A stretch of 59,582 nt of DNA. Source: Candidatus Omnitrophota bacterium (GTDB lineage Bacteria > Omnitrophota > Gorgyraeia > 1-14-0-20-64-10). The number at the start of each line of letters is the position of its first letter. Position 1 is the first letter of the stretch. The stretch lies in NCBI GenBank assembly GCA_016201735.1, contig JACQCH010000014.1:1-59582 (forward strand), written 5' to 3'. A program made the position numbers and the translations under genes. The notes under the pieces are model-generated. The model had not been told where the DNA came from. It worked only from the letters and a program-made list of their open reading frames with translations, and searched no databases. Shown in pieces: positions 6,675-50,950 of this stretch.

Positions 6675-7349
6675 ATGCGGAGCCCTTCGACTCGGCCGTT
6701 CATCCTGAGCCTGTCGAAGGAGAACGGCCGGCTCAGGACAGGCTTGTCGGCGGCGGCTTTGCTGATTTTGTTGACCGGTTCACTGCAGAGTGAGGGGAGG
6801 CAACAGATAGAACCGAAACTTCAAAAAGCGGCGTTCGGGGCCGGCTGTTTCTGGGGGGTGGAGAAGATTTTCTCGAAGCTCGACGGGGTGGTCTCCACTT
6901 CCGTGGGGTACATGGGCGGGACGACGAAGGCAGCGACTTACCCCCAAGTCTGCTCAGGACAGACGGGGCACGCGGAGGCCGTCCAGCTGGTCTACGATCC
7001 TTCCCGGGTGTCGTACGAGGATCTGCTCGTCACCTTCTGGGAAACTCACGATCCTACCACGCCGGACCGGCAGGGGCCTGATGTCGGCAGCCAGTATCGG
7101 TCCGTGATCTTCGTTTATGACGGTCAGCAGGAAGAGGCCGCGAAGCGGTCCAAGCGAATCCTCGACGAGGCCAAGGTTTTCAAGGACCCGATTGTCACCC
7201 AGATCATCCCCGCGACGGAATTTTATCGGGCGGAGGAGTACCACCAGAAGTATCTGGAAAAAAACCCGAACGGCTACTGCTCCCACCACCTGCAATCCCC
7301 GAAGATCCGCCAGGCCCTCCAAACCAAGTCCGCCGGCGCTCGTTCATAG
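6675..7349 (+). CDS. msrA: Peptide-methionine (S)-S-oxide reductase; hydrophobic N-terminus suggests export
   Basis: GCFWG, GHAEAV, HDPT, RQGPDVGSQYRS, AEEYHQKY. Confidence 0.93.
   Translation: MRSPSTRPFILSLSKENGRLRTGLSAAALLILLTGSLQSEGRQQIEPKLQKAAFGAGCFWGVEKIFSKLDGVVSTSVGYMGGTTKAATYPQVCSGQTGHAEAVQLVYDPSRVSYEDLLVTFWETHDPTTPDRQGPDVGSQYRSVIFVYDGQQEEAAKRSKRILDEAKVFKDPIVTQIIPATEFYRAEEYHQKYLEKNPNGYCSHHLQSPKIRQALQTKSAGARS
6682..6744. repeat. Nested REP-like palindrome read in frame in the msrA 5' end
   Basis: cccttcgact...gctcaggacaggc enclosing ggccgttc atcctgagcctgtcgaagga gaacggcc. Confidence 0.7.
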
Positions 7350-15861: not shown

Positions 15862-16001
15862 TCACCCCGCCCCTCCGGAGTATGCTCTCGGCAGAAGGGG
15901 TGGGTTTTTTAAGATTCAAGGGGGAGACAGCCGAGGGCATCTGTGCCTTCGGCACAGTGAAGCGGCCACGGCCGCTTCATGACTCCGGAGGGGCGGGGTC
16001 A
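15862..16001. mobile_element. MITE-like cloverleaf element, copy 1 (15865-15998 plus TCA direct repeats)
   Basis: TCA-CCCCGCCCCTCCGGAGT...ACTCCGGAGGGGCGGGG-TCA. Confidence 0.8.
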
Positions 16002-26833: not shown

Positions 26834-28651
26834 CAGCTTAAACCCAGGGAGAAGCCGCTGTTCATTTACGATGGGGACTGCGGTTTCTGCCGCCGCTGGA
26901 TTGCCCGTTGGCAGGCGCTGACGAAGGATCAGATCGAGTACGCCCCCTATCAGGAGACGGCGGCCCAGTTCCCTGAGATTCCCGAGGAGCAGTTCCAGGC
27001 CTCGGTCAAGTTGATCGATACCGACGGCCAACTCTTTTCTGGGGCCGAGGCGATTGTCCGCACGCTGGCCCACGTCCCTGAAAAGAGGTGGCTGCTCCGG
27101 CTTTACAAGGAGCTCCCGGCGGCGGCACCGATCGCGGAGTGGGGCTACCGGATCATCGCCCGGCACCGGGCTCGGCTTTCCCCGCCGCGATGCCCGACCC
27201 CGCCGGAAACCTATTCTGTGAGCCGTTGGATATTCCTCAGGGCGATGGGCCTGATTTATCTGATCGCCTTCGCCTCCCTCTGGGTGCAGGTGGAGGGACT
27301 GCTTGGGCCGCATGGGATCGCGCCGGTCCATGATTTTCTGGAGCTCCTTCGCCGGCAGATGGGACCGGAGCGGTACTGGCTGGTTCCGACCGTTTTCTGG
27401 TTGAACGCCGGCAGCCTGGCTCTGCGCCTGGTCTGCGCCGGCGGCGTTTTCTTCTCCCTGCTTCTTATCGCCAGGATCGCCCCTGCGGCCAGTCTGATCT
27501 TCCTGTGGGCCCTCTACTTGTCTCTGTCCTCGGTCGCTCAGGAATTCTTAAACTTTCAATGGGATGCCCTGCTCCTTGAGACGGGGCTGCTTTCCATCTT
27601 CTTCGCCCTCGCTCCATCGAGGATTGTCTTATGGCTCCTTCGGTGGCTCCTGTTCCGGCTGATCTTTTCCTCCGGCGTCGTGAAACTGGCCAGCGGGGAC
27701 CCGACCTGGGCGAACTTGACCGCCTTGACATTCCATTACCAGACCCAGCCGCTTCCCACATGGATCGGCTGGACCGCGCATCAACTGCCGGTCTGGTTTC
27801 AGAAATTCTCCTGCGGGGTGATGTTCGCCGTCGAGCTGGGAGCGCCGTGGCTGATCCTTGGAGGCCGGCGGCTGCGCCGGATCGGGCTTGCCGCGATCGC
27901 CGCCCTGCAGGGGCTGATCCTGCTCACGGGCAACTACTGCTTCTTCAACTGGCTCACCATCGCCCTGTGCCTCCTGTTCATCGAGGATGCGGCCTGGCTG
28001 CGGCTAGAGGAGGCCGCACCATTTGTATCATGGCCCCGATGGTTCCAAGAGAGGGCGGCAGTAAAGAAACGGCGATGGCCCGGTTGGATCATCCCTCCAG
28101 CGGCTGCGGTCATCTTCCTGGTGAGCTCTTTCCATCTGTTCGGCCTCTTGCGCCGGGACATTGAGTGGCCGGCCGCCGTCTCCGGGTTATCGAATCTTCT
28201 GGCCCCCTATCGCAGCGTGAACAGTTACGGGCTGTTCGCTGTGATGACCACCTCCCGCCCGGAAATCATTGTCGAGGGAAGCCGCGACGGCATCACCTGG
28301 CTGCCGTACGAATTCAAATACAAGCCCGGCGAATTAAAAAGGAAGCCGGCCTTTGTCGCTCCCTACCAACCCCGGCTGGACTGGCAGCTCTGGTTTGCCG
28401 CTTTAAGCCGGGTCCAGGATAATCCCTGGTTCTTAAGCTTCTGCGTCCGCCTGCTGGAGGGATCACCCCAGGTGCTGGCCCTGCTGAAGACCAACCCTTT
28501 TCCGGAGAAACCGCCCCGGTACATTCGGGCGGTACTGTACGATTACCGCTTCACCGATCTCTCCGGCCGACGCGCCACCGGTCAATGGTGGCGGCGGGAA
28601 TTTAAGGGAGTGTATTGTCCGGTCTTGTCTTTGAGATCAGAAACTCCATGA
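26831..28651 (+). CDS. DCC1-like thiol-disulfide domain fused to lipase maturation factor (LMF1) family protein
   Basis: YDGDCGFC; FQWDALLLETG, SGVVK, HYQTQPLP, TGNY.FFN, YGLFAVMT, YEFKYKPG, PRLDWQ.WFAAL. Confidence 0.88.
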   Translation: MQLKPREKPLFIYDGDCGFCRRWIARWQALTKDQIEYAPYQETAAQFPEIPEEQFQASVKLIDTDGQLFSGAEAIVRTLAHVPEKRWLLRLYKELPAAAPIAEWGYRIIARHRARLSPPRCPTPPETYSVSRWIFLRAMGLIYLIAFASLWVQVEGLLGPHGIAPVHDFLELLRRQMGPERYWLVPTVFWLNAGSLALRLVCAGGVFFSLLLIARIAPAASLIFLWALYLSLSSVAQEFLNFQWDALLLETGLLSIFFALAPSRIVLWLLRWLLFRLIFSSGVVKLASGDPTWANLTALTFHYQTQPLPTWIGWTAHQLPVWFQKFSCGVMFAVELGAPWLILGGRRLRRIGLAAIAALQGLILLTGNYCFFNWLTIALCLLFIEDAAWLRLEEAAPFVSWPRWFQERAAVKKRRWPGWIIPPAAAVIFLVSSFHLFGLLRRDIEWPAAVSGLSNLLAPYRSVNSYGLFAVMTTSRPEIIVEGSRDGITWLPYEFKYKPGELKRKPAFVAPYQPRLDWQLWFAALSRVQDNPWFLSFCVRLLEGSPQVLALLKTNPFPEKPPRYIRAVLYDYRFTDLSGRRATGQWWRREFKGVYCPVLSLRSETP

Positions 28652-28666
28652 TAAAATTGTCTTACC

Positions 28667-30594
<1,928 letters not shown>

Positions 30595-39624: not shown

Positions 39625-39891
39625 CTAGCCCGAGACGATTCCGGCAAAGACCAAAAGAGTCGCCAGCCCGATGAGGAAGAAAGGAAAGCCCGCGACGATC
39701 CAGAGCGGAACCAACCGCTCGAATTTTAGATGCATGTAGAACAGGGCAACGAGAATTGCCTTGATCAGGGAGACGAACAGAATGAGCCCGACCGCCGTCG
39801 TCTTGGAGATCGGCAGCGTCGAGATGAATGTCCCCGCCGCCAACAGGACGATCAGCCAAATCCAGATGACAAAATACTTTCCGTAGCTCAC
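39625..39891 (-). CDS. Cytochrome c oxidase subunit IV (CtaF-like)
   Basis: KA.LV..FYMHLKFE, three transmembrane segments; GTG start formed by the MITE end. Confidence 0.85.
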   Translation of the reverse strand: MSYGKYFVIWIWLIVLLAAGTFISTLPISKTTAVGLILFVSLIKAILVALFYMHLKFERLVPLWIVAGFPFFLIGLATLLVFAGIVSG

Positions 39892-40042
39892 CCCGCCCCT
39901 CCGGAGTTGCAGCTCCGCCCCTGCAGGGGTGGAGCCGCTGTGCCGAAGGCACCGATGCCCTCGGCTGTCTCTCGTTTAACAACACCATAAGAATCCAAAT
40001 TGTCACCTATGCCGAGGGCATAACTCCGGAGGGGCGGGGTCA
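39888..40042. mobile_element. MITE-like cloverleaf element, copy 2 (39891-40039)
   Basis: Same terminal inverted repeats and TCA direct repeats as copy 1. Confidence 0.8.
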
Positions 40043-40630
40043 TATCAGGTACAACAGCGGAAACAGAAAGATCCAGACCAAATCCACGAAGTGCCAGTAC
40101 AGCCCGGAAAGCTCCACCCGGTGCCCGTCAGATCGGAGGAAGTTCGGCCGGAACGTCAGCCATAAGATCCAAAGGTTGGCGATGATTCCCGCCAGCACGT
40201 GAAGCCCATGTAAGCCCGTCAGGGTAAAGTAGCAATCCCAGAACAGTGCTGTTCCCGGGAAATGTCCGTGGGCGAATTTGATCGAATACTCATAGCCCTT
40301 CACTCCCAAGAAGGCGGTTCCCAACAGGATCGTCAAGAGGAGGAAGAGGCGGATCTTCTTCGAGTCGGCCTGATGAACCGCGGCGACGGACATCGCCATC
40401 GTCATGGAGCTGGAAAGCAGAATGAAGGTATTCATGGCGGCCAAGGGGATCGACAGATCCTCTCCCGGACGCGGCCAGTGAGCCATTCCGGCCCGTAAGA
40501 CAATGGTGGCCCCCAGAAGCCCGGTGAAAAACATCACCTCCGAGGCCAGGAAAAGCCACATCCCCAATTTCGCCGAAGGGATTCCGGTCGAGGTGTCTCC
40601 CGTGTGAACCGAATGAGCGTCGGTCGTCAC
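40040..40630 (-). CDS. ctaE: Cytochrome c oxidase subunit III
   Basis: GMWLFLASE.MFF, NT.ILLSSS, TGLHGLHV, LYWHFVD.VW; GTG start at 40630. Confidence 0.92.
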   Translation of the reverse strand: MTTDAHSVHTGDTSTGIPSAKLGMWLFLASEVMFFTGLLGATIVLRAGMAHWPRPGEDLSIPLAAMNTFILLSSSMTMAMSVAAVHQADSKKIRLFLLLTILLGTAFLGVKGYEYSIKFAHGHFPGTALFWDCYFTLTGLHGLHVLAGIIANLWILWLTFRPNFLRSDGHRVELSGLYWHFVDLVWIFLFPLLYLI

Positions 40631-40814
40631 CCCGCCCCTCCGGAGTTCTGGTTCCATCCCTTCAGGGATGGAACCGCTGTGCCGAAGGCACAGGTGCCCT
40701 CGGCTGTCTCCAATTCAAACCGGCCACCCTTTCCGAAAAACATGTGTCGCGTCTCCTTGGATCTTAAAGAACCCACTCCCTCTGCCGAGGGCACACTCCG
40801 GAGGGGCGGGGTCA
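40627..40814. mobile_element. MITE-like cloverleaf element, copy 3 (40630-40811)
   Basis: Same terminal inverted repeats and TCA direct repeats as copy 1. Confidence 0.8.
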
Positions 40815-42503
40815 TCCAATCACCTTGTCCAGTGTCATGGTAACAAAAAGAAACGGAAGGTAAAGCACCGACGCGAAGAAGAGCCGGTGAGCGGCCCGCG
40901 CCGACTTTGTCTGGGCGGTCATCAGGCCGATCGTTAAGAAGGCCAAGCTTCCCCCCAGCGCCCCGAAGAAATAAAGAGAGCCGGCCAATCCGAAGAAGCT
41001 CGGCAGCAGACTGGCCGGCACCAGGGCCGCGCAGTAAAGGGAGATCTGCCGGAAGGTCAGCCCCCCGTCCGGATCCAAGACCGGGAGCATCTTAAAACCG
41101 GCGCGCGCATAATCCTCCCGGAATTCCCACGCCAGCGCCAGGAAATGGGGCAGCTGCCAGAGGAAAAGAATCGCGAATAAGATCCAGGCCCCGACCCCCA
41201 GTTCCCCGCGGGCCGCCGCCCACCCGATCAGCGGAGGCAGGGCGCCGGGGATTGCCCCGATCAGCGTGCACAGGGCGGTGCGGGGTTTTAGAGGAGTGTA
41301 GAGGAACAGGTAAGTTCCCAGGGTGGCCGCTCCAAGAGTCCCGGCTAACGGATTTGCCCCGAAGGTTAAGATAAGAAGTCCGGCGACGGAAGCAGCGACG
41401 CCGAAAAACAGGGCCGATTCCGGCCGGATCCGCCCGGAGGGGATCGGCCGTTTGCGGGTCCGGCTCATCCGGGCGTCCGCTTCCTGTTCCAGAACCTGGT
41501 TCAGAGCGGCGGCGCCCCCGCCTAAGAAGGCGGTGCCCAGCAGAACCGAGACCCCTTTCCCCATATCCAGCGGGCCGGTCGACGCGAGGAATAAACCGAT
41601 CAGACTGGTGATCACCGCGAGACAGGTCAGGCGCGGTTTGGTCAGCTCCAGATAAACGGACAGGCCCGACGGATAATAGGAGGATTCGGAAGAATAAAAT
41701 ACCCGGACGCACAAGAGGACCGAGACGGCCAACATCAGAGCGCCGACGGCCACATGGGCCGTGGCCAGCCCAACGCCGCCTCCTCCCCGTACAAGAGTTG
41801 AGAATCCCAAGCCGATCTGAACCAGGAGGAGGCAGGGCAGCATTTTCGCGGGCCCGGCGAGGATGGAGTCTTGGCGGTGTCTTCGAAGAACGGCCGCAGC
41901 CGTCGCCCCGATGCAGCCGGCGACCGTCACAGCCCAAGCGATGTGGGCTCCGACCAGGTGCGGCCTCCAACCGGCGTGCCTTAACAACGCTCCCAAGATG
42001 AGCTGGCCGTAGACTGCCAACGCCGTCGCGAAACTTAGCTGCCGCAAGAAAACGGAAGGCCGTTCCTCGGGTTTGAGCCGCCGCGGCAGCCATTCAGGGG
42101 AAGTGACCTGCGCCAGCGCGACGATCGCGGCGAAGAAGGTTTGCCCTAAGCAGGCGTGGGCGACGGAAACCGGCAGAGGAAGCTGCCACAGGACGGTCAA
42201 TCCTCCCAGGATTCCCTGAAGGAGGACAAGCCCCAAGGCCCCGACCCCCAGCCGCCGGACCCACCGGCGGGATTCTTTCATCTGCAGCCAGACGGCAAGG
42301 ATCAGGGTCAAAAGCCCCACCGTGGCGGCGATCATCCGGTGAGTGTGCTCGAACCGGATCCCGCCGACCATCGGCGGGAAAAGGGTTCCGTAGGAAAGAG
42401 GCCAATCCGGGACCGACAACCCGGACCCGGTGGAGGTGACCAGCCCCCCCGCGATGATCAGCAGGAAGCTGACGAAGGCTGTGAAAACGGCGAGCCTATG
42501 CAT
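40812..42503 (-). CDS. ctaB: Fused heme A synthase (CtaA/COX15-like) and protoheme IX farnesyltransferase (CtaB/CyoE)
   Basis: N half GGLVT...GL..PDWP, EHTHR; C half LTKPR, N...E...DA.M.RT..RPIPSG, YTPLK, GA.PP..GW, WQ.PHF. Confidence 0.88.
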   Translation of the reverse strand: MHRLAVFTAFVSFLLIIAGGLVTSTGSGLSVPDWPLSYGTLFPPMVGGIRFEHTHRMIAATVGLLTLILAVWLQMKESRRWVRRLGVGALGLVLLQGILGGLTVLWQLPLPVSVAHACLGQTFFAAIVALAQVTSPEWLPRRLKPEERPSVFLRQLSFATALAVYGQLILGALLRHAGWRPHLVGAHIAWAVTVAGCIGATAAAVLRRHRQDSILAGPAKMLPCLLLVQIGLGFSTLVRGGGGVGLATAHVAVGALMLAVSVLLCVRVFYSSESSYYPSGLSVYLELTKPRLTCLAVITSLIGLFLASTGPLDMGKGVSVLLGTAFLGGGAAALNQVLEQEADARMSRTRKRPIPSGRIRPESALFFGVAASVAGLLILTFGANPLAGTLGAATLGTYLFLYTPLKPRTALCTLIGAIPGALPPLIGWAAARGELGVGAWILFAILFLWQLPHFLALAWEFREDYARAGFKMLPVLDPDGGLTFRQISLYCAALVPASLLPSFFGLAGSLYFFGALGGSLAFLTIGLMTAQTKSARAAHRLFFASVLYLPFLFVTMTLDKVIG

Positions 42504-44208
42504 GCTTCTCGGTTTGCATCTGCCAATCCCGCTTCATTCCCGGAACGGAATACTCGTAAGGCCCGCAGTGGACCACCGGAGTCTTGGCGAAATTTCCATG
42601 GGGCGGCGGGGAAGGGGTTTCCCATTCCAGGGTGGTCGCCTCCCATGGATTCGGGCCGGCCTTCTCTCCCTTAAACAGACTCCGGAAGAAATTGAAGGCG
42701 AACAGCAGCTGGGTAGCCATCAGGCAGAACGCGGAAACGGACATCATCCGGTTTAACGGAGCGAAATGGACCAATCCCGCGTACTGGGTGTAGTCGTAGA
42801 TTCGCCGCGGCATCCCGCCCAATCCCAGGATGAACATCGGGAACATGACGCCGTTGAAGAACAGGAACGTCAGCCAGAAATGGGTTTTCCCCCACCGGTC
42901 GTTCATCTTCCGGCCGAACATCTTGGGGAACCAGTAGGTGATCCCGGCGAAGGCCCCGAAGAGGGATCCGCCGAACAGGACGTAATGGAGATGGCCGACG
43001 ACGAAGTAGGTGTCGTGCATGTACATATCCACCGGCGTCGAGGCGAGAAAAACCCCGGTCAATCCCCCGATGATGAACATCGAGATGAATCCCAAGGCGT
43101 GCAGCATCGGGGTGGTGAGGCGGATGCTCCCCCGCCAGAGGGTTCCCAGCCAGCTGAACACCTTCACCCCCGTGGGAACCGCCACCGCCATCGTGGAAAC
43201 CATGAAGGTCGTCCCCAGCGTCGGGTTCATTCCGGTCTGGAACATGTGATGGGCCCAAACGAGGAACCCGACCGCTCCGATCGTCACCGCCGAGTAGGAG
43301 ATCGCCTTGTAGCCGAAGATCGGCTTCCGGGAAAAGTTGGGCAGGATGTCGGAGACAAATCCCATGGCCGGGAGAATCATGATGTAGACCGCAGGATGAG
43401 AATAGAACCAGAACAGGTGCTGCCACAAAAGGGCTTGGCCTCCGGCATGGGCGAGGGGAGTTCCGTCGACGATCATCCCGGCCGGGAGGAAGAAGCTGGT
43501 TCCCAAGCAGCGGTCCAGCAGGAGAAGGATCATGGCTGCGGCCAGCACCGGGGTGGCCAGCAGGGTCAGGACCGCCGTGGTGAACATGGCCCAGATCGAG
43601 ATCGGCAGCCGGTGGAAGCTCATCCCGGGCGCCCGGTGGTTGATGATCGTCGCCACGTAATTGACCGCGCCGAAGATCGACGAGAATCCCAGGATGACGA
43701 CCCCGGCCGCCCAAAGGGTTTGCCCCGGCCCCATCGTTTCTTTCAGCCCGCTTAAAGGAGGATACGCCGTCCAGCCGGAGGCCGCGGCGCCTCCCTCGAC
43801 GAAGAAGCCGGCCAGCACCGTCGCGGCGGCGATCGGAAAGAGCCAGTACGACAGCATGTTCAGGCGGGGGAAGGCCATGTCCGGCGCCCCGATCTTTAAG
43901 GGGATCAGGTAATTGCCGAACGCTCCGACGAGCAGGGGGATCACCCCGAAGAAGATCATGATCGAGCCGTGCATGGTAAAGAGCATGTTGTAATATTCCG
44001 GCACCATGATCCCGCCGGGCATTCCGGCGGGGGCTATTTTTTCCATGAAGGGCAAGGGGCTCCCCGGCCATCCCAGCTGCCAGCGCATCAGCATCGCCAA
44101 GAGTCCACCGAAAAACATGAAGATCAGAGAAGAGAAGAGGAATTGGATTCCGATCACCTTGTGATCCGTCGAGAAGATGTACTTCCGGATGAATCCCGGG
44201 TCACTCAT
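42496..44208 (-). CDS. ctaD: Cytochrome c oxidase subunit I (A2 type)
   Basis: TDHK.IG, TMHG, DMAFPRLN, GWT.YPPL, YSHPAVY, WAHHM, HDTYFVVGH.HY, GMPRR. Confidence 0.96.
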   Translation of the reverse strand: MSDPGFIRKYIFSTDHKVIGIQFLFSSLIFMFFGGLLAMLMRWQLGWPGSPLPFMEKIAPAGMPGGIMVPEYYNMLFTMHGSIMIFFGVIPLLVGAFGNYLIPLKIGAPDMAFPRLNMLSYWLFPIAAATVLAGFFVEGGAAASGWTAYPPLSGLKETMGPGQTLWAAGVVILGFSSIFGAVNYVATIINHRAPGMSFHRLPISIWAMFTTAVLTLLATPVLAAAMILLLLDRCLGTSFFLPAGMIVDGTPLAHAGGQALLWQHLFWFYSHPAVYIMILPAMGFVSDILPNFSRKPIFGYKAISYSAVTIGAVGFLVWAHHMFQTGMNPTLGTTFMVSTMAVAVPTGVKVFSWLGTLWRGSIRLTTPMLHALGFISMFIIGGLTGVFLASTPVDMYMHDTYFVVGHLHYVLFGGSLFGAFAGITYWFPKMFGRKMNDRWGKTHFWLTFLFFNGVMFPMFILGLGGMPRRIYDYTQYAGLVHFAPLNRMMSVSAFCLMATQLLFAFNFFRSLFKGEKAGPNPWEATTLEWETPSPPPHGNFAKTPVVHCGPYEYSVPGMKRDWQMQTEKHA

Positions 44209-44860
44209 TGGCTTTCGTCTCCGCGAGCCACTCCTGGAAATTGACGGCCGGCTCTGTGGTTACAAATCCCCGCATTCGGTAATGGCCCAGCCCGCACAGC
44301 TCCGCGCAACGGATTTCGAACTGGCCGGCCCGGGTGGCCTGCACCCAAACCTGGGTCGGCAGTCCCGGCACTGCGTCCTGTTTGACCCGGAACTCCGGGA
44401 CAAAGAAGCTGTGGATCACATCCTTCGAGAGAACCTTGATCAGGACCGGCTCTCCGACGGGCAGATGAAGCTGGTTGATCGTCGTGATGTCGTCCGCTGT
44501 GTTGAATTGGTTGTCCGGACCGGGATACCGGATGTTCCAGGCGAACTGCTCGGCCAGGATCTCCACCTGAACCGCGGGGGTCGGCATCTGTTTCGGGAAC
44601 CGGATTTCGGCCCAGACCTTTTGTGAGGCCAGGGTAAGAAAGAGCAGGATCACCGCCGGAACAATCGTCCAGATAATTTCCACTAGGGTGTTTCCGTGCA
44701 GATACGCGGCGGGTCTTCCCGGCTTGGCCCGATAGACAAGCACGAACAGCAATAAAGCCCCCTGAACCAGGAAGAAGAAGAATCCGGTGATCCAAAGGAT
44801 CGCCCAGAAGAGCCGGTCAACCTGCGGGGCGTAGGTGGAGGCGGCTTCCGGAAGAAGCAT
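44201..44860 (-). CDS. ctaC: Cytochrome c oxidase subunit II
   Basis: EIIWT.VP, QFAW, DVIHSF, CuA motif CAELCGLGHYRM; start 44860, or 44887 inside a repeat. Confidence 0.93.
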   Translation of the reverse strand: MLLPEAASTYAPQVDRLFWAILWITGFFFFLVQGALLLFVLVYRAKPGRPAAYLHGNTLVEIIWTIVPAVILLFLTLASQKVWAEIRFPKQMPTPAVQVEILAEQFAWNIRYPGPDNQFNTADDITTINQLHLPVGEPVLIKVLSKDVIHSFFVPEFRVKQDAVPGLPTQVWVQATRAGQFEIRCAELCGLGHYRMRGFVTTEPAVNFQEWLAETKANE

Positions 44861-44866
44861 TTCAGC

Positions 44867-44989
44867 GGTCTGATGAAAATGGCTCATCTGCTTCGTTGCA
44901 CGCTGCGCTCCCTTGTGTGGCGTACATGTTGACGTACGCCTCCGCGGTCGCTTGCGTGCGCCTCACATCTGAGACCATTTTGATCAGAC
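44867..44989. repeat. Palindromic repeat element upstream of subunit II
   Basis: ggtctgatgaaaatggctca...tgagaccattttgatcagacc with inner ggcgtac/gtacgcc. Confidence 0.65.
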
Positions 44990-47273: not shown

Positions 47274-48533
47274 TCAACGCGCAAGGAAAGCGGTCAGCAG
47301 GCCTAAGTAGGTGCCGAGGAGGTTGCCTAAGATCGCCATCAGGAGTCCGACCGTCGCCAGTTCGGCGGAAAAGGTGGCTCCCACGATCGGAGCGGAGATC
47401 GGCCCGCCGATGTTCGCCTGGGAGGCGGTGGCGATCAGCCCCAACGGGGCCTTAAAGAGGAATCCTCCGACGATGAGCAGAACCAGCCCATGGATCAGGA
47501 TCCAGGTGATTCCGAAGGCGATAAAGACCGGTGCCTGGGCGATGGCCTGAAAATTCGCGCGGGCCCCGATCGAAGCCAGCAGCACATACAGGGCAAAGGT
47601 TCCGACCCGGGAAAGGCCCGCCTGCTCGATTCTTCTCAACGGGGTCAGGGAGAGAATCAGGGCCAGCGTGGTCACGAGCAGGATCGTCCAGCTCGACGGG
47701 TTCATCACCCATCCCATCGTCGGCAGCCGCCGGCCAATCCACTGCGCCATCACAGAAAGGGATACAGCTAGAGCGATGCCAGTTGCGAGGCCGTTGACAT
47801 TACTGGAGACAGCGCCATGGGAGGGGGCGGGGTTCGAAGACAATAGATGGCCCGAGCGGGCACGGTTCTCCGCCGGTGAGCTTTCACTCAGGCGGAGAGA
47901 GCGAGGGCCAGCTTTTAGCGAGACGACCTCGCTGGGGTCGTCTCGCGGGTCTGAGAATCCCGCTCCCTCCCGCTGGCGCTGAGTCAGGCGTTGCCACGGC
48001 TCCTGCCACGCGGAGCTCCAGATGAGGAGCGCCATCCAGGAATACGCGACGATCGCATCGACGAGGATGATCGGGGCCATCAGGGCGTCCGGAGTCCGCA
48101 GCGCCTCCTTGACCGCCAGCATGTTCGCAGAACCGCCGATCCAGCTTCCAGCGAGGGCTCCGACCGCGGCCCAGGAATCCGGCGGCAGCCATCGATGGTA
48201 CAACGCCAGTGAGGCCAGGCCTCCGAGGATCGTTCCGAAGGAGCCGGTGAGCATGAGAATGATCGCTACAGGACCCAGCCGGGCGATCCCTTTTAGGTCG
48301 GTGCCGATCAAAAGAAGGACGAGGCAGATGGGGAGGAGTTGTTGCGAGAGGGCGCTGTATAGAGGATGGCTTGAGGGCAGCCAGCCCAAGCTCGTTCCCG
48401 CCATCGGGATCATGTAGCACCAGAAGGGGAGCGGAAAAAATTTAAACGCCCAGCGGAACTTCGGCTGAACAGATAAATTCCGCAGGACAGCAACCAGGGC
48501 GATCAGGAACAGTAAGAGATGGAGAGACGTCAT
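47274..48533 (-). CDS. DUF819-family membrane transporter
   Basis: GSWIGGSANM.A, IGA.A, ASQANIGGP.SAP; contains an in-frame palindromic insert. Confidence 0.82.
   Translation of the reverse strand: MTSLHLLLFLIALVAVLRNLSVQPKFRWAFKFFPLPFWCYMIPMAGTSLGWLPSSHPLYSALSQQLLPICLVLLLIGTDLKGIARLGPVAIILMLTGSFGTILGGLASLALYHRWLPPDSWAAVGALAGSWIGGSANMLAVKEALRTPDALMAPIILVDAIVAYSWMALLIWSSAWQEPWQRLTQRQREGAGFSDPRDDPSEVVSLKAGPRSLRLSESSPAENRARSGHLLSSNPAPSHGAVSSNVNGLATGIALAVSLSVMAQWIGRRLPTMGWVMNPSSWTILLVTTLALILSLTPLRRIEQAGLSRVGTFALYVLLASIGARANFQAIAQAPVFIAFGITWILIHGLVLLIVGGFLFKAPLGLIATASQANIGGPISAPIVGATFSAELATVGLLMAILGNLLGTYLGLLTAFLAR
47808..47985. repeat. In-frame multi-hairpin palindromic insertion in the DUF819 gene
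   Basis: Outer cagcgcca.gggagggggcggggttc / gaatcccgctccctccc.ctggcgctg; inner gcgagacgacc/ggtcgtctcgc and tctccgcc/ggcggaga. Confidence 0.75.
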
Positions 48534-48562
48534 TGCGAAGAGCGAAACGATGAAGCAATCTC
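48528..48562. repeat. CGTC-type REP-like unit supplying the ATGA junction at 48530-48533
   Basis: cgtcattgcgaagagcgaaacgatgaagcaatctc. Confidence 0.6.
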
Positions 48563-49627
48563 AGCGCCGCAGCCGGGCCGGGTGGGATGAACGGTCAGCC
48601 GGGCTCCTCGGGTCTCAAAACCGGGAACGCCGGGCGGGGAAACGACCAAGAGATGAGAATCCAGATCAACGAAATCAAAAACGCCCGTCCCGCAGGCGAA
48701 CTGAACGGATGCCGACAAGCCGACCGCCGACTCGGCCATGCAGCCGATCATCAGCTTCATACCGGCCCGTCTGGCCAGGCGGACGATCTTGAAGGCTCCC
48801 AGGAGCCCGCACTTGGCAAGCTTGATATTGAGGATCCGGACGGTTCTTTTGCGAATCAGTCGGCCCGCTTCGGAGACACTCCGAGCCGACTCATCGGCAG
48901 CGACGGAGATTCCCCCTTCTTTCTGAACCTGGGCGAGCCCATCCCAGTCTTCCCGGGCGACCGGCTGCTCGAACAGTCGGATCGGGAAATGGTGCCGGCG
49001 CAGGAGCCGGGCAAAGCCAATGGCTTCTTTCACGGTAAATCCTTGGTTGCCATCGACCCAGAGGGTCGCCTGTGGGGCTGCCTCGCAGACGGAGGCGATC
49101 CGCCGCAGATCCCCGTCCGGATTTTTCCCGGTCACCTTTACCTTCAGCCGCCGGAAGCCGGCCGCCTGGGCGCTGGAGGCCGCGCGGGCCGCTTGGTTTC
49201 CGGGCCAGGCCGAGATCGTCAAGCTGGTCGTGACCGATCGGCCTTTTGCTCCATAGAAGCGCCAGAGAGGAATTCCTTTCGTCCGGGTGTAGGCATCCAT
49301 CAGCGCGCACTCGAGAGCCCCAACGGCGGTCGGGTGCTCACCGGCCGCTTCCCACGCCGATTCAGCCAATCGGCGGAAGCAGAGGATGGAGGCACCGATC
49401 AACCGGCCCTCGAGCCGCCGGAGGGCGGCGGCCATCGCGGCCTGAGTTTCCGAGGGCCAGGCCAGCGACGCGGAGGCTTCTCCGATCCCGACGGTCCCGT
49501 CTTCCAGCCGGAGCCGAACGAGCAGATTCCGGCTGATCCGCTTATTCCCCAGTGCCGTCACGAACGGCCGGCGCATCGGGAGATTCAGCGGCGCCAGTTC
49601 CAGCCCGGCGATCCGCTCGCCGCTCAC
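48530..49627 (-). CDS. Dipeptide (L-Ala-D/L-Glu) epimerase, enolase superfamily (YkfB-like)
   Basis: KVK, DGNQG, EQP, ADES, NIKLAK, GCMAES, DLD. Confidence 0.88.
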   Translation of the reverse strand: MSGERIAGLELAPLNLPMRRPFVTALGNKRISRNLLVRLRLEDGTVGIGEASASLAWPSETQAAMAAALRRLEGRLIGASILCFRRLAESAWEAAGEHPTAVGALECALMDAYTRTKGIPLWRFYGAKGRSVTTSLTISAWPGNQAARAASSAQAAGFRRLKVKVTGKNPDGDLRRIASVCEAAPQATLWVDGNQGFTVKEAIGFARLLRRHHFPIRLFEQPVAREDWDGLAQVQKEGGISVAADESARSVSEAGRLIRKRTVRILNIKLAKCGLLGAFKIVRLARRAGMKLMIGCMAESAVGLSASVQFACGTGVFDFVDLDSHLLVVSPPGVPGFETRGARLTVHPTRPGCGAEIASSFRSSQ

Positions 49628-49760
49628 CCCGCCCCTCCGTTTCTATGAAAAGCCGTTTGGCTTTTCATAGCGCCGAGCCATGGGTCGGCGCAGGCGCTGT
49701 CGAAATCCATTCTCTTGTCCTGTGCTGTTCGACAGCGCAGGAAACGGAGGGGCGGGGTCA
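49624..49760. mobile_element. MITE-like element, copy 4, variant interior (49627-49757)
   Basis: TCA-CCCCGCCCCTCCGTTTC...GAAACGGAGGGGCGGGG-TCA with three internal hairpins. Confidence 0.78.
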
Positions 49761-50723
49761 TTGAGGAAGATACGTCCCGAAAAAGATCCGGCGGCCCTTC
49801 GCCTCTTTCAAACGCTCGCTGAGAGGAAGCTCTCGGACCAGCTTCCCGGTCCCGGGGCTTTCAATGATGCGGGCCTTATTTTCATAGAGATAAATCATGA
49901 CGTGGCTCACTCGTTGCGGATCCTTCGGATCGTTCAAAAAAATTAGATCTCCGGGCAAGAGCTGCTCCGGTGAGATCGGCCAGGCCTGCATCCAGATCTC
50001 ATGGGCGTCCCGCGGGATGATCATCCCGTTGGCTTGGTAGACTAACCCCGCGAGCCCCGAACAGTCGACGGCGGTGTGAGATGTTCCAGAGCCGGACAGG
50101 TTGGCGGCGGAGCGCCCGCCCCAGTAGTAAGGATCCCCGAGAAACAACCGGGCGGTCTGGACCAACCGGGCCCGCCAGCGGGCCGGATCTTCCTTCCGGA
50201 TTTCGGCCAGTTTTTCAAGCCGAGCGATCTCTTCCCCTGAAATCCAGCCAGTCGTTCCATCGAGCAGCCGCAGATTCCACCCGTTTCCGTCCGGAGTTCC
50301 CGCCAGCCGTGTCCCGATCGACAAGAGGAAGCGGGCAGGGGTGTTTGATCCCGGCTTCTCCAGCACCTTCCCCTGCTTGGCCGTCACAACCAGATTGGGA
50401 TTCCAATTCCCGGGATCCTCGATGAGATTCTCCAGTTCGATCCAGCCGGGATATCCTTCCCACCGCTTATGATGAGTCCATTCCATCTGCTCGACGGCCG
50501 AGACCCGGGCCCAGCCCTCTTTTATTTCCTGAACCTCGACGGGATCTCCGTAAAGGAGTTGGCTCTCTTCCAACGGATCCTGCTCGAGCGTCGGGCCGGC
50601 CCGTCCCGGTTCCCGCCGGAGATCCGCGACAGGAACCGCCACCCGCATCCGCCGCGGAGCCGCTTCGATCGTAGCGCTGGTTGCAGGCAACAACCAAATG
50701 AGGAAGGAGATGGCCAGTCCCAC
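49758..50723 (-). CDS. SH3b + NlpC/P60 peptidase (YkfC-like)
   Basis: SQLLYG, Y.GW, FLG.PY.WGGRS, DCSG, IPRDA, PGDLIF, HV; GTG 50723 follows AAAGGAG (start uncertain). Confidence 0.85.
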   Translation of the reverse strand: MGLAISFLIWLLPATSATIEAAPRRMRVAVPVADLRREPGRAGPTLEQDPLEESQLLYGDPVEVQEIKEGWARVSAVEQMEWTHHKRWEGYPGWIELENLIEDPGNWNPNLVVTAKQGKVLEKPGSNTPARFLLSIGTRLAGTPDGNGWNLRLLDGTTGWISGEEIARLEKLAEIRKEDPARWRARLVQTARLFLGDPYYWGGRSAANLSGSGTSHTAVDCSGLAGLVYQANGMIIPRDAHEIWMQAWPISPEQLLPGDLIFLNDPKDPQRVSHVMIYLYENKARIIESPGTGKLVRELPLSERLKEAKGRRIFFGTYLPQ

Positions 50724-50730
50724 CCCTGCT

Positions 50731-50950
50731 CCTTTCGGGGTCCTGGCGGGGGTGGGCTGTCTCCCGGCATCGGCCTTCACTGGATGAGTTTTCACATTTA
50801 CCATGTCAGAGTTAAGAGAGATGGCCAAACCCAAACAGGACGTTCCATGGAAAGGCGTTCATTTCAGCCTGTGTCTTCCATTCCATCAGGGCTTGAGCCT
50901 CACACGGCGGCCTGCTGGCGGGAGCCAACCCACCCCCGTCACCCCGAAGG
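50731..50950. repeat. Large inverted-repeat-bounded element in the NlpC/P60 leader
   Basis: ctttcggggt..tggcgggggtggg..ctcccg versus cgggag..cccacccccgtca.ccccgaagg. Confidence 0.6.

Follow-up and report, generated by a model that had tools for sequence, protein, structure and literature searches.

The 59,582-nt stretch analysed here, contig C19 of a Candidatus Omnitrophota bacterium assembly (GCA_016201735.1; 1.81 Mb, 67 contigs, 58.5% G+C) and referred to throughout as the window, carries four copies of a short inverted-repeat element, three of which divide the overlapping stop and start codons of neighbouring genes. We consider it likely that these copies are non-autonomous MITEs (miniature inverted-repeat transposable elements) that sit on NTGA start codons, are read through by ribosomes and permit re-initiation on the host gene at GTGA. 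Tight operons, that of the cytochrome oxidase genes included, have been split by them, apparently without being silenced. The anatomy of the elements, their copy statistics, the empty sites in relatives, the open frames, the RNA fold and the nuclease-bearing copies on which this account draws are direct observations.

Each element in the window opens CCCCGCCCCTCCG and closes CGGAGGGGCGGGG, with TCA on both sides and a T after the right-hand TCA. The sequence-only reading of this DNA had described four such elements with terminal inverted repeats; its positions proved exact (Table 1), the repeats (CCCCGCCCCTCC) are present, and removal of an element together with one TCA reconstructs ATGA on the minus strand in all four cases, as it had proposed. 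A census of the whole genome, requiring 12-nt end cores with at most one mismatch per end and 60-700 bp between the ends, returned 68 paired elements of 96-586 bp, and tabulation of their flanks, which that reading had recommended, placed TGA at both ends of 63 of them. Perfect terminal inverted repeats of 12-17 nt run through the family, and the 1.81-Mb genome contains 69 occurrences of the 15-mer that joins the exact right end to TGA (GGAGGGGCGGGGTGA) and none of its reversed control; this is a repeat family beyond chance. The interiors fall into several unrelated subfamilies, within each of which copies are related by descent, and the ends alone are common to all. Copies stand singly, not in tandem arrays, and near-identical ones (interior identity up to 99%) precede unrelated genes. 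Relative to the gene that follows, interiors are strongly oriented, at ratios of 36:3, 13:0, 5:0 and 3:0 in four subfamilies; 28 of the 68 copies would remain open when flipped. An enzyme-like open reading frame (ORF) is absent from 66 copies, and the remaining two carry a GIY-YIG nuclease gene. Taken together, a MITE-like family with duplication of TGA is supported.

The sites that these elements occupy follow a rule broader than the specificity for ATGA stop/start overlaps that was originally claimed. Copies were oriented to TGA and the flanking frames scored by a codon-usage model trained on the genome's long ORFs. At the right end, the last G of the element and the TG of the right-hand TGA form a new GTG 6 nt after GGAGG, and in 63 of the 68 copies a coding ORF of 60 codons or more begins at this terminal GTG; the earlier description of the terminus as GGAGG-N6-GTG in frame with the downstream gene thus extends to the genome as a whole. 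Among these 63 start-site copies, 39 also have a coding ORF ending at the left TGA and 24 have no upstream gene. When the empty site is reconstructed, the frame upstream of NTG is non-coding in 67/68, which marks NTG as a true start and not an internal codon. The actual rule is therefore an NTG start followed by A. Nor is the base preceding TGA always A: it is A in 38 copies, G in 16, T in 11 and C in three (five aberrant flanks counted), a usage that resembles that of start codons. Independent support comes from protein families: read from the element's GTG, nine of ten randomly chosen downstream ORFs match Pfam, and in five (CbiA, RbfA, NDK, LPG synthase and MurD-N) positions 1-3 of the model fall within the first 3-12 residues.

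By the same gene calls, TGA occurs at 7,209 intergenic sites in the genome, compared with no more than 651-1,518 sites at starts, and harmless insertion at TGA would be expected to put 8-17% of copies at starts, against the 93% observed in a test that counts copies as independent insertions. The target logo is flat beyond NTGA, and only 20 of the 63 empty sites contain a Shine-Dalgarno (SD)-like 4-mer. If the youngest copies are taken to be the 25 whose interior is at least 93% identical to that of the nearest neighbour, 24 of them lie at gene starts, which tells against a gradual loss of neutral copies as the sole cause of the pattern; true targeting and immediate selection against an untranslated hairpin of -117 kcal/mol cannot be told apart by these age data. 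The five copies away from starts show 67-87% identity, except for C53:21214 (96%; contigs of the source assembly are numbered C), whose downstream ORF of 509 codons has a coding score near zero. As a separate observation, a TAnnnT box lies at -18 to -5 of the start codon in eight of the 24 targets without an upstream gene (for example C5:20797, C53:24843, C58:8261 and C30:50455) and in three of the 39 operon-internal ones; some targets look like leaderless genes to which the element has given a long structured leader.

The second feature on which our interpretation rests is a reading frame that passes through the element. Fifty of the 68 copies have a length of 2 mod 3, over 20 distinct lengths between 131 and 503 nt, which brings the old start codon, kept in the left NTGA, into phase with the right TGA. 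An unbroken ORF runs from this old start to the right TGA in 46/68, whereas 1,000 shuffles of the interiors averaged 8.9 such copies and never exceeded 17. Read in the frame closed by the duplicated TGA, 59 copies contain no stop over the full element; in the other two frames the figures are 24 and two. At its end the pass-through ORF shares bases with the new start, stop and start together reading GTGA, the type of overlap that the excerpted text of PMC12548453 gives as the commonest natural coupling arrangement. The through-ORF is present at 31 of the 39 operon-internal junctions and 13 of the 24 first genes. Elements of three other genera (G004, G001 and G007 in our numbering of related genomes) repeat the pattern with interiors unrelated to those of the source genome: among their 26 paired elements, 21 are 2 mod 3 in length and 20 are open from the old start to TGA. 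Coupling had earlier been attributed to a ribosome terminating at the left TGA, a view that overlooked the retained start and the through frame of 46 copies; because the old start opens a frame across the element, it offers a more direct route to coupling than a stop at the left TGA.

The claim that the ribosome-binding site is buried in the terminal stem is borne out by the predicted structure. The RNA of element C (Table 1) with short flanks folds at -116.6 kcal/mol (z = -8.5 against 200 shuffles), and an 18-bp closing helix pairs CCUCC on the left with GGAGG on the right. With the SD paired in this helix, free initiation at GTG looks unlikely unless the helix is opened. A consensus fold for 21 copies of the main family comprises 44 pairs, with 99% of cells paired, and both-sided changes occur at 17 of the 44, chiefly within hairpin four and at four terminal-helix positions; as alignment and fold come from the same sequences, this compensatory-change evidence is supportive and not decisive. 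A search of Rfam returned no matching family, with CRISPR-DR12 (E 0.61) alone below threshold.

From these features we infer expression, mobility, read-through and re-initiation, which may be joined in the following way. The element occupies NTGA sites whose NTG is the start of a gene, with TGA duplicated. To its left, any upstream gene retains its TGA stop, and the old start codon survives. On the right, the last G of the element with the following TG supplies a new GTG, 6 nt past GGAGG and overlapping the second TGA. Ribosomes coming from the old start or from the upstream gene would then translate through the element and unwind the terminal helix of 17-18 bp in which the ribosome-binding site is hidden; after termination at GTGA they would initiate anew on the host gene, as in termination-reinitiation coupling at -4.

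The window copies illustrate this anatomy (Table 1). Three of them split ATGA stop/start overlaps, between ctaAB and coxIII, coxIII and coxIV, and the NlpC and epimerase genes, just as the sequence-only reading had stated; at each junction the upstream gene retains its TGA, GGAGG-GGCGGG-GTG stands in frame with the downstream gene, and the gene names previously assigned agree with Pfam. The cox operon runs coxII, coxI, ctaA-ctaB fusion, element C, coxIII, element B, coxIV. At the right end of element C, GGAGG-GGCGGG-G supplies the SD and the first base of the new GTG (40630..40628), which the duplicated TGA (40629..40627) overlaps. The stop of coxIII is TGA 40042..40040, and orthologues of this gene align from residues 1-13. 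Element B shares both subfamily and orientation with element C. The fourth copy, element A, is one of the five of 68 that lie off gene starts: its terminal GTG opens only three codons and starts no gene, its interior runs opposite to those of B and C, and its through frame contains a stop. Two further features of this region may be recorded. The genes ctaA (COX15) and ctaB (UbiA prenyltransferase) are fused as a single 563-aa ORF within the cox operon, and a second repeat with the motif CCCCGCCACCCCGAAG, which has about 35 matches genome-wide, occurs in the window at 50934 (+). That repeat is nested in six composite MITE copies (C36:21701, C37:2245, C37:8570, C48:2998, C50:7382 and C66:6451), three of which, of 287, 464 and 503 nt, are still open end to end.

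Table 1. The four elements of the window, their pass-through ORFs and the neighbouring genes.
Feature	Coordinates	Strand	Remarks
coxII	44201-44887		cox operon
coxI	42496-44208		cox operon
ctaA-ctaB fusion, upstream of element C	40812..42503	-	Pfam COX15-CtaA + UbiA; stop TGA 40814..40812
Left target copy ATGA	40812..40815	-	ctaAB stop TGA overlapping the retained original coxIII ATG
Element C, 182 nt	40630..40811	-	inverted repeats of ~17 nt each, pairing as closing helix
Element C pass-through ORF, 62 aa	40627..40815	-	original ATG to duplicated TGA (40629..40627)
coxIII	40040..40630	-	Pfam COX3; starts at GTG formed by the element's last G + duplicated TG
Element B, 149 nt	39891..40039	-	in ATGA (40043..40040) of coxIII/coxIV overlap
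Element B pass-through ORF, 51 aa	39888..40043	-	duplicated TGA 39890..39888 overlaps new GTG 39891..39889
coxIV	39625..39891	-	Pfam COX4_pro; begins at element-derived GTG
NlpC/P60 gene, upstream of element D	49758-50834	-	Pfam
Element D, 131 nt	49627..49757	-	GTT subfamily interior, same 13-nt ends
Element D pass-through ORF, 45 aa	49624-49761		
MR_MLE epimerase, downstream of element D	48530-49627	-	Pfam
Element A, 134 nt	15865..15998	-	between divergent FIST and NAD-kinase-like genes

Related genomes supply the corresponding empty sites. The right end plus TGA was found in 13 of the 19 other genomes of the same family, with 26 occurrences in G004, 13 in G001, 10 in G014 and nine each in G007 and G017; across 21 genomes from other families of the order and class it occurred once, in one genome. 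Among the genomes searched, the element is restricted to one family of Omnitrophota-type bacteria. Empty sites had been named as a check on the proposal, and ATGA or GTGA was found at all three window junctions: for ctaAB/coxIII, ATGA in G005 and G002 and GTGA in G001; for coxIII/coxIV, ATGA in G001, G004 and G002; and for NlpC/epimerase, ATGA in G004 and GTGA in G001 and G005. Over five other genera these junctions consist of ATGA, GTGA or a separate stop and start, bar three that hold an unrelated mini-repeat. The latter, a double hairpin of about 40 nt (GGGGTCAGACCCC type) followed by the start codon, is found at ctaAB/coxIII in G004 (locus L002) and G007 (L004) and at NlpC/epimerase in G007 (L102), and different elements thus converge upon the same junctions. 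Of 40 right ends taken from G004, G001 and G007, 26 belong to paired elements and 14 are truncated or solo, and these 14 still give GGAGGGGCGGGG-TG ahead of a long ORF. Among relics of this kind, solo right ends (GGAGGGGCGGGGTGA) persist as the ribosome-binding site and GTG of genes at L008, L019, L032, L034, L035 and L038 (G004/G001), and one solo left end (L060 in G006) now codes for the N-terminus, MTPPLR, of a glycerol-kinase-like gene.

That no candidate transposase lies near the elements holds true for the window; elsewhere in the genome, however, one copy encodes a nuclease within the same ends. A profile search with PF01541 gave six matches in the genome, two of them inside census elements. 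The first, C52:90632-90958, is a 327-bp element flanked by ATGA and TGA at a gene junction, with an intact 94-aa GIY-YIG ORF (C52:90677-90961; 57.5 bits against a cut-off of 22.6, with no second domain found) whose stop is the duplicated TGA; the other, C58:12386-12669, is an N-terminally deleted copy. Intact 327-bp nuclease copies recur in two other genera, G004 (two) and G015 (one), with protein identities of 77-80%, and G001 retains a nuclease remnant. In the ATGGGT subfamily, which has 13 members, the encoded peptides are recognisable remnants of the nuclease ORF, and at least this subfamily therefore descends from a nuclease-bearing form. On these sequence relationships, the 327-bp GIY-YIG form is probably the parent of the MITEs, and, more tentatively, we infer for its nuclease a part as mover. 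The best relative of solved structure is the UPF0213 protein 1zg2 (E 5e-4), and about ten public homologues of 94-125 aa share 72-80% identity, one being labelled as from a Candidatus Omnitrophica metagenome-assembled genome. More distant GIY-YIG cassettes (45-52% identity) were seen in other families of the class, at L090 (G033), L091 (G031) and L092 (G008); they have other terminal repeats and the same plan, in which the left side has a start codon and the right side SD-N6-GTG, and in G033 the nuclease ORF begins at the host ATG. The source genome also has stand-alone GIY-YIG ORFs of 97-105 aa at C15:26097-26312, C45:10585-10803 and C22:6617-6835, those on C45 and C22 being followed by other hairpin repeats (of GTCATTTCGA type after the C45 ORF), which may be separate nuclease/repeat pairs.

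The search for a transposase-bearing insertion sequence with the same ends, which the sequence-only reading had recommended, brought no DDE version to light; the only enzyme-coding form found with those ends is the GIY-YIG one of C52, G004 and G015. Within the source genome, PF13359, PF13586, PF01797, PF02371 and PF00665 had no match. The single PF01609 match is an IS4-like element at C40:~28285-29445 whose ends differ, whose duplication measures 9 bp and whose transposase contains a TAG, and the PF07282 match is a C-terminal TnpB fragment at a contig start (C54:170-520) with unrelated flanks; neither qualifies as a partner. In the family's 20 genomes, no DDE, Y1 or IS110-type enzyme occurs with these ends: none of 11 PF01609 loci has them, PF13586 is present only in the element-free G018 and PF13359 is present nowhere, although the searched genomes are 60-98% complete and the absence of a DDE partner is not proven. 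None of ten orphan left ends in the relatives belonged to a long element: some stood alone, some lay at contig ends, and others were short copies whose right end has diverged. C57:123-1959 was rejected as a long element, as it contains pilin-like genes, with an inverted copy of 1890-2080 at the contig start (C57:1-190, the MITE end included, probably an assembly artefact at the repeat), and the CCCCGCCACCCCGAAG repeat was rejected as an autonomous partner with no enzyme gene nearby.

Several points weigh against the interpretation of start-codon MITEs that are read through and hand translation on at GTGA. The ORF from the old start to TGA is lacking in 22/68, the terminal frame has a stop in 9/68, and CTGCG/CGCAG ends, which destroy GGAGG, occur in three copies, the nuclease-bearing copy among them. 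Gene calls come from a crude, purpose-built codon-usage model, and since copies in one subfamily share ancestry the counts overstate independence. The 3' end of the 16S gene was sought in the assembly and not found, and use of this SD is therefore presumptive. The locus occurs in seven DNA sequencing runs from groundwater belonging to two studies, with no RNA run listed; run contigs from four runs contain no empty-site joint (a skip of ~152 or 185 nt at the duplication), these contigs breaking inside the repeats, except that one, from a possible source run, spans element B unchanged. Intact nuclease copies are present in only three of the 14 element-bearing genomes of the family. Moreover, we know of no role for a hydrolytic GIY-YIG nuclease in catalysing transposition, and the gene may be a passenger.

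The last point is accommodated by the reading in which these are ordinary DDE MITEs of IS5/Harbinger-like type that insert at any TGA, the pattern at start codons being what selection or deletion has left and the GIY-YIG gene a passenger. IS5-group and Harbinger elements duplicate TNA, a cut-and-paste mechanism is classically recognised by perfect inverted repeats with a duplication of 3 bp, the logo is flat beyond NTGA, and the off-start copies are old and diverged. We nevertheless hold this account to be unlikely, because PF01609 and similar domains are never found with these ends in the source genome or the 20 family genomes, incomplete as these assemblies are, because all but one of the 25 youngest copies already occupy starts, and because interiors are oriented 36:3, 13:0, 5:0 and 3:0 although 28/68 would be open if flipped. 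Closer to the original proposal is a specialisation for ATGA overlaps, in which a ribosome ending at the left TGA opens the stem and translation of the element is irrelevant. This would explain neither the 2-mod-3 bias and open frame nor the greater frequency of the through-ORF inside operons (31/39) than at first genes (13/24), and 24/68 copies have no upstream gene and 30/68 have G, T or C before TGA. Such a model is quite unlikely in our estimation, even granting that 39/68 copies are at overlaps with an upstream gene, that the left TGA borders directly on the helix's left arm, part of which a terminating ribosome would cover, and that the through-ORF, at 46/68, is not universal.

One might also regard the elements as immobile, vertically inherited regulators of the structured-leader or upstream-ORF kind, always placed 5' of a gene and strongly folded, with compensatory changes at 17 of 44 pairs and 99% of cells paired in 21 copies. 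The same junctions are empty in other genera, direct TGA repeats flank 63/68 copies, near-identical copies stand ahead of unrelated genes, Rfam has no matching family, and both nuclease-bearing copies and solo-end relics exist; we give this explanation hardly any credence. The interpretation as non-autonomous MITEs on start codons, translated through and followed by re-initiation, accordingly remains the one that we favour.

It is possible, if somewhat doubtful, to go further and see in the 327-bp form the smallest autonomous bacterial mobile element: one whose nuclease would drive directional insertion at start codons, and which would ride on host translation and hand it on at GTGA. Such an element may consist of two ends of 12-17 nt and a 94-aa, Ssn-like GIY-YIG nuclease that reads hairpins. 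If true, this would be a nuclease-based, translation-aware transposition undescribed for any insertion sequence family.

Should the more modest mechanism hold, a transposon would have colonised the most constrained of sites, the stop/start junctions of operons, including those between cytochrome oxidase subunits, by means of a portable translation start and an interior that can itself be translated. A principle proposed only for MIRUs, the interspersed repetitive units of mycobacteria, would thereby reach a distant phylum and a true inverted-repeat element. The family would additionally be a natural system in which models of translational coupling by termination-reinitiation and by RNA unfolding could be set against each other. 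For annotation pipelines, the elements imply about 60 mis-called gene starts per genome and may add spurious ORFs of 45-65 aa.

Neither a start-codon MITE from Omnitrophota nor a GIY-YIG element enclosed by terminal inverted repeats is described in the literature that we searched. In comparison with derivatives of IS200/IS605 (PATE), which are marked by a Y1 transposase or TnpB partner, subterminal hairpins and the lack of a target duplication, the present element has a direct TGA repeat, no PF01797 match and a TnpB fragment with unrelated flanks only; in comparison with the IS5/PIF-Harbinger type, no DDE transposase (PF01609/PF13586/PF13359) lies within the same ends, in genomes 60-98% complete. 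Correia/NEMIS, ERIC, RUP and Nezha are bacterial MITEs that are co-transcribed with genes, according to the excerpted text of PMC3184786. These share with our element a short length, a non-coding character, terminal inverted repeats, target duplication, a long hairpin fold and an intergenic position within transcription units. Their partners, where known, are DDE transposases, and to our knowledge no start-codon siting, rebuilding of SD and start, or end-to-end frame has been reported for them. The Rickettsia palindromic elements (RPE, Ogata et al. 2000) are mobile palindromic repeats that survive by respecting the reading frame; as excerpted in PMC3184786, they lie inside coding sequence and become part of the protein, whereas the Omnitrophota element is a separate small ORF between stop and start.

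The closest functional parallel is with MIRUs, a comparison made by description and not by sequence. MIRUs are described as landing on start codons and carrying an ORF with -4 nt coupling, and the ends of that ORF overlap the neighbouring genes, an arrangement proposed to keep the host gene translated (Supply et al. 1997, as summarised in PMC12548453 and PMC3184786). The same excerpts (PMC12548453, PMC3184786) describe small repeats in tens of copies within operons, with direct repeats at filled sites and empty sites in a relative, and all of this resembles our family, in which 63/68 copies are at starts and the ORF ends at GTGA in 59/68. In contrast, the MIRUs of Mycobacterium are 40-100 bp long, have imperfect inverted repeats and serve as tandem-repeat markers (PMC12548453 and PMC3184786, again in part), whereas the Omnitrophota element is 96-586 bp long, occurs in single copies and has perfect ends of 12-17 nt with the SD inside the closing helix. 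It also swaps in its own GTG, is orientation-biased, makes a 3-bp duplication and shares its ends with a nuclease-bearing form.

For the nuclease itself the nearest counterpart is Ssn, a single-domain GIY-YIG enzyme that binds a hairpin repeat and cuts adjacent single-stranded DNA on one strand (PMC11893778, in excerpt). The authors of that work noted the insertion-sequence-like arrangement of ssn genes (NTS-ssnA-NTS; Chenal et al. 2025), which have the repeat on either side, and in both systems a single-domain GIY-YIG protein of about 100 aa lies between inverted-repeat motifs scattered over the genome (excerpts of PMC11893778). This likeness is one of size, domain and, in part, layout; the Ssn family itself is defined by assignment to CDD cd10448 or by a blastp E<1e-10 to SsnA of N. 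meningitidis (PMC11893778). The Ssn repeats are self-contained hairpins of 20-50 nt, whereas the Omnitrophota ends, present 69 times in the genome, pair with each other; the excerpted text of PMC11893778 describes no target duplication, start-codon position or pass-through ORF. Judged by analogy, a strand-specific enzyme of the Ssn type would fit both the orientation bias and the conserved pairing of our elements. The nuclease-bearing form described here suggests, in turn, a candidate route by which GIY-YIG genes of Ssn type may have spread together with their repeats, a question left open in the excerpts of PMC11893778.

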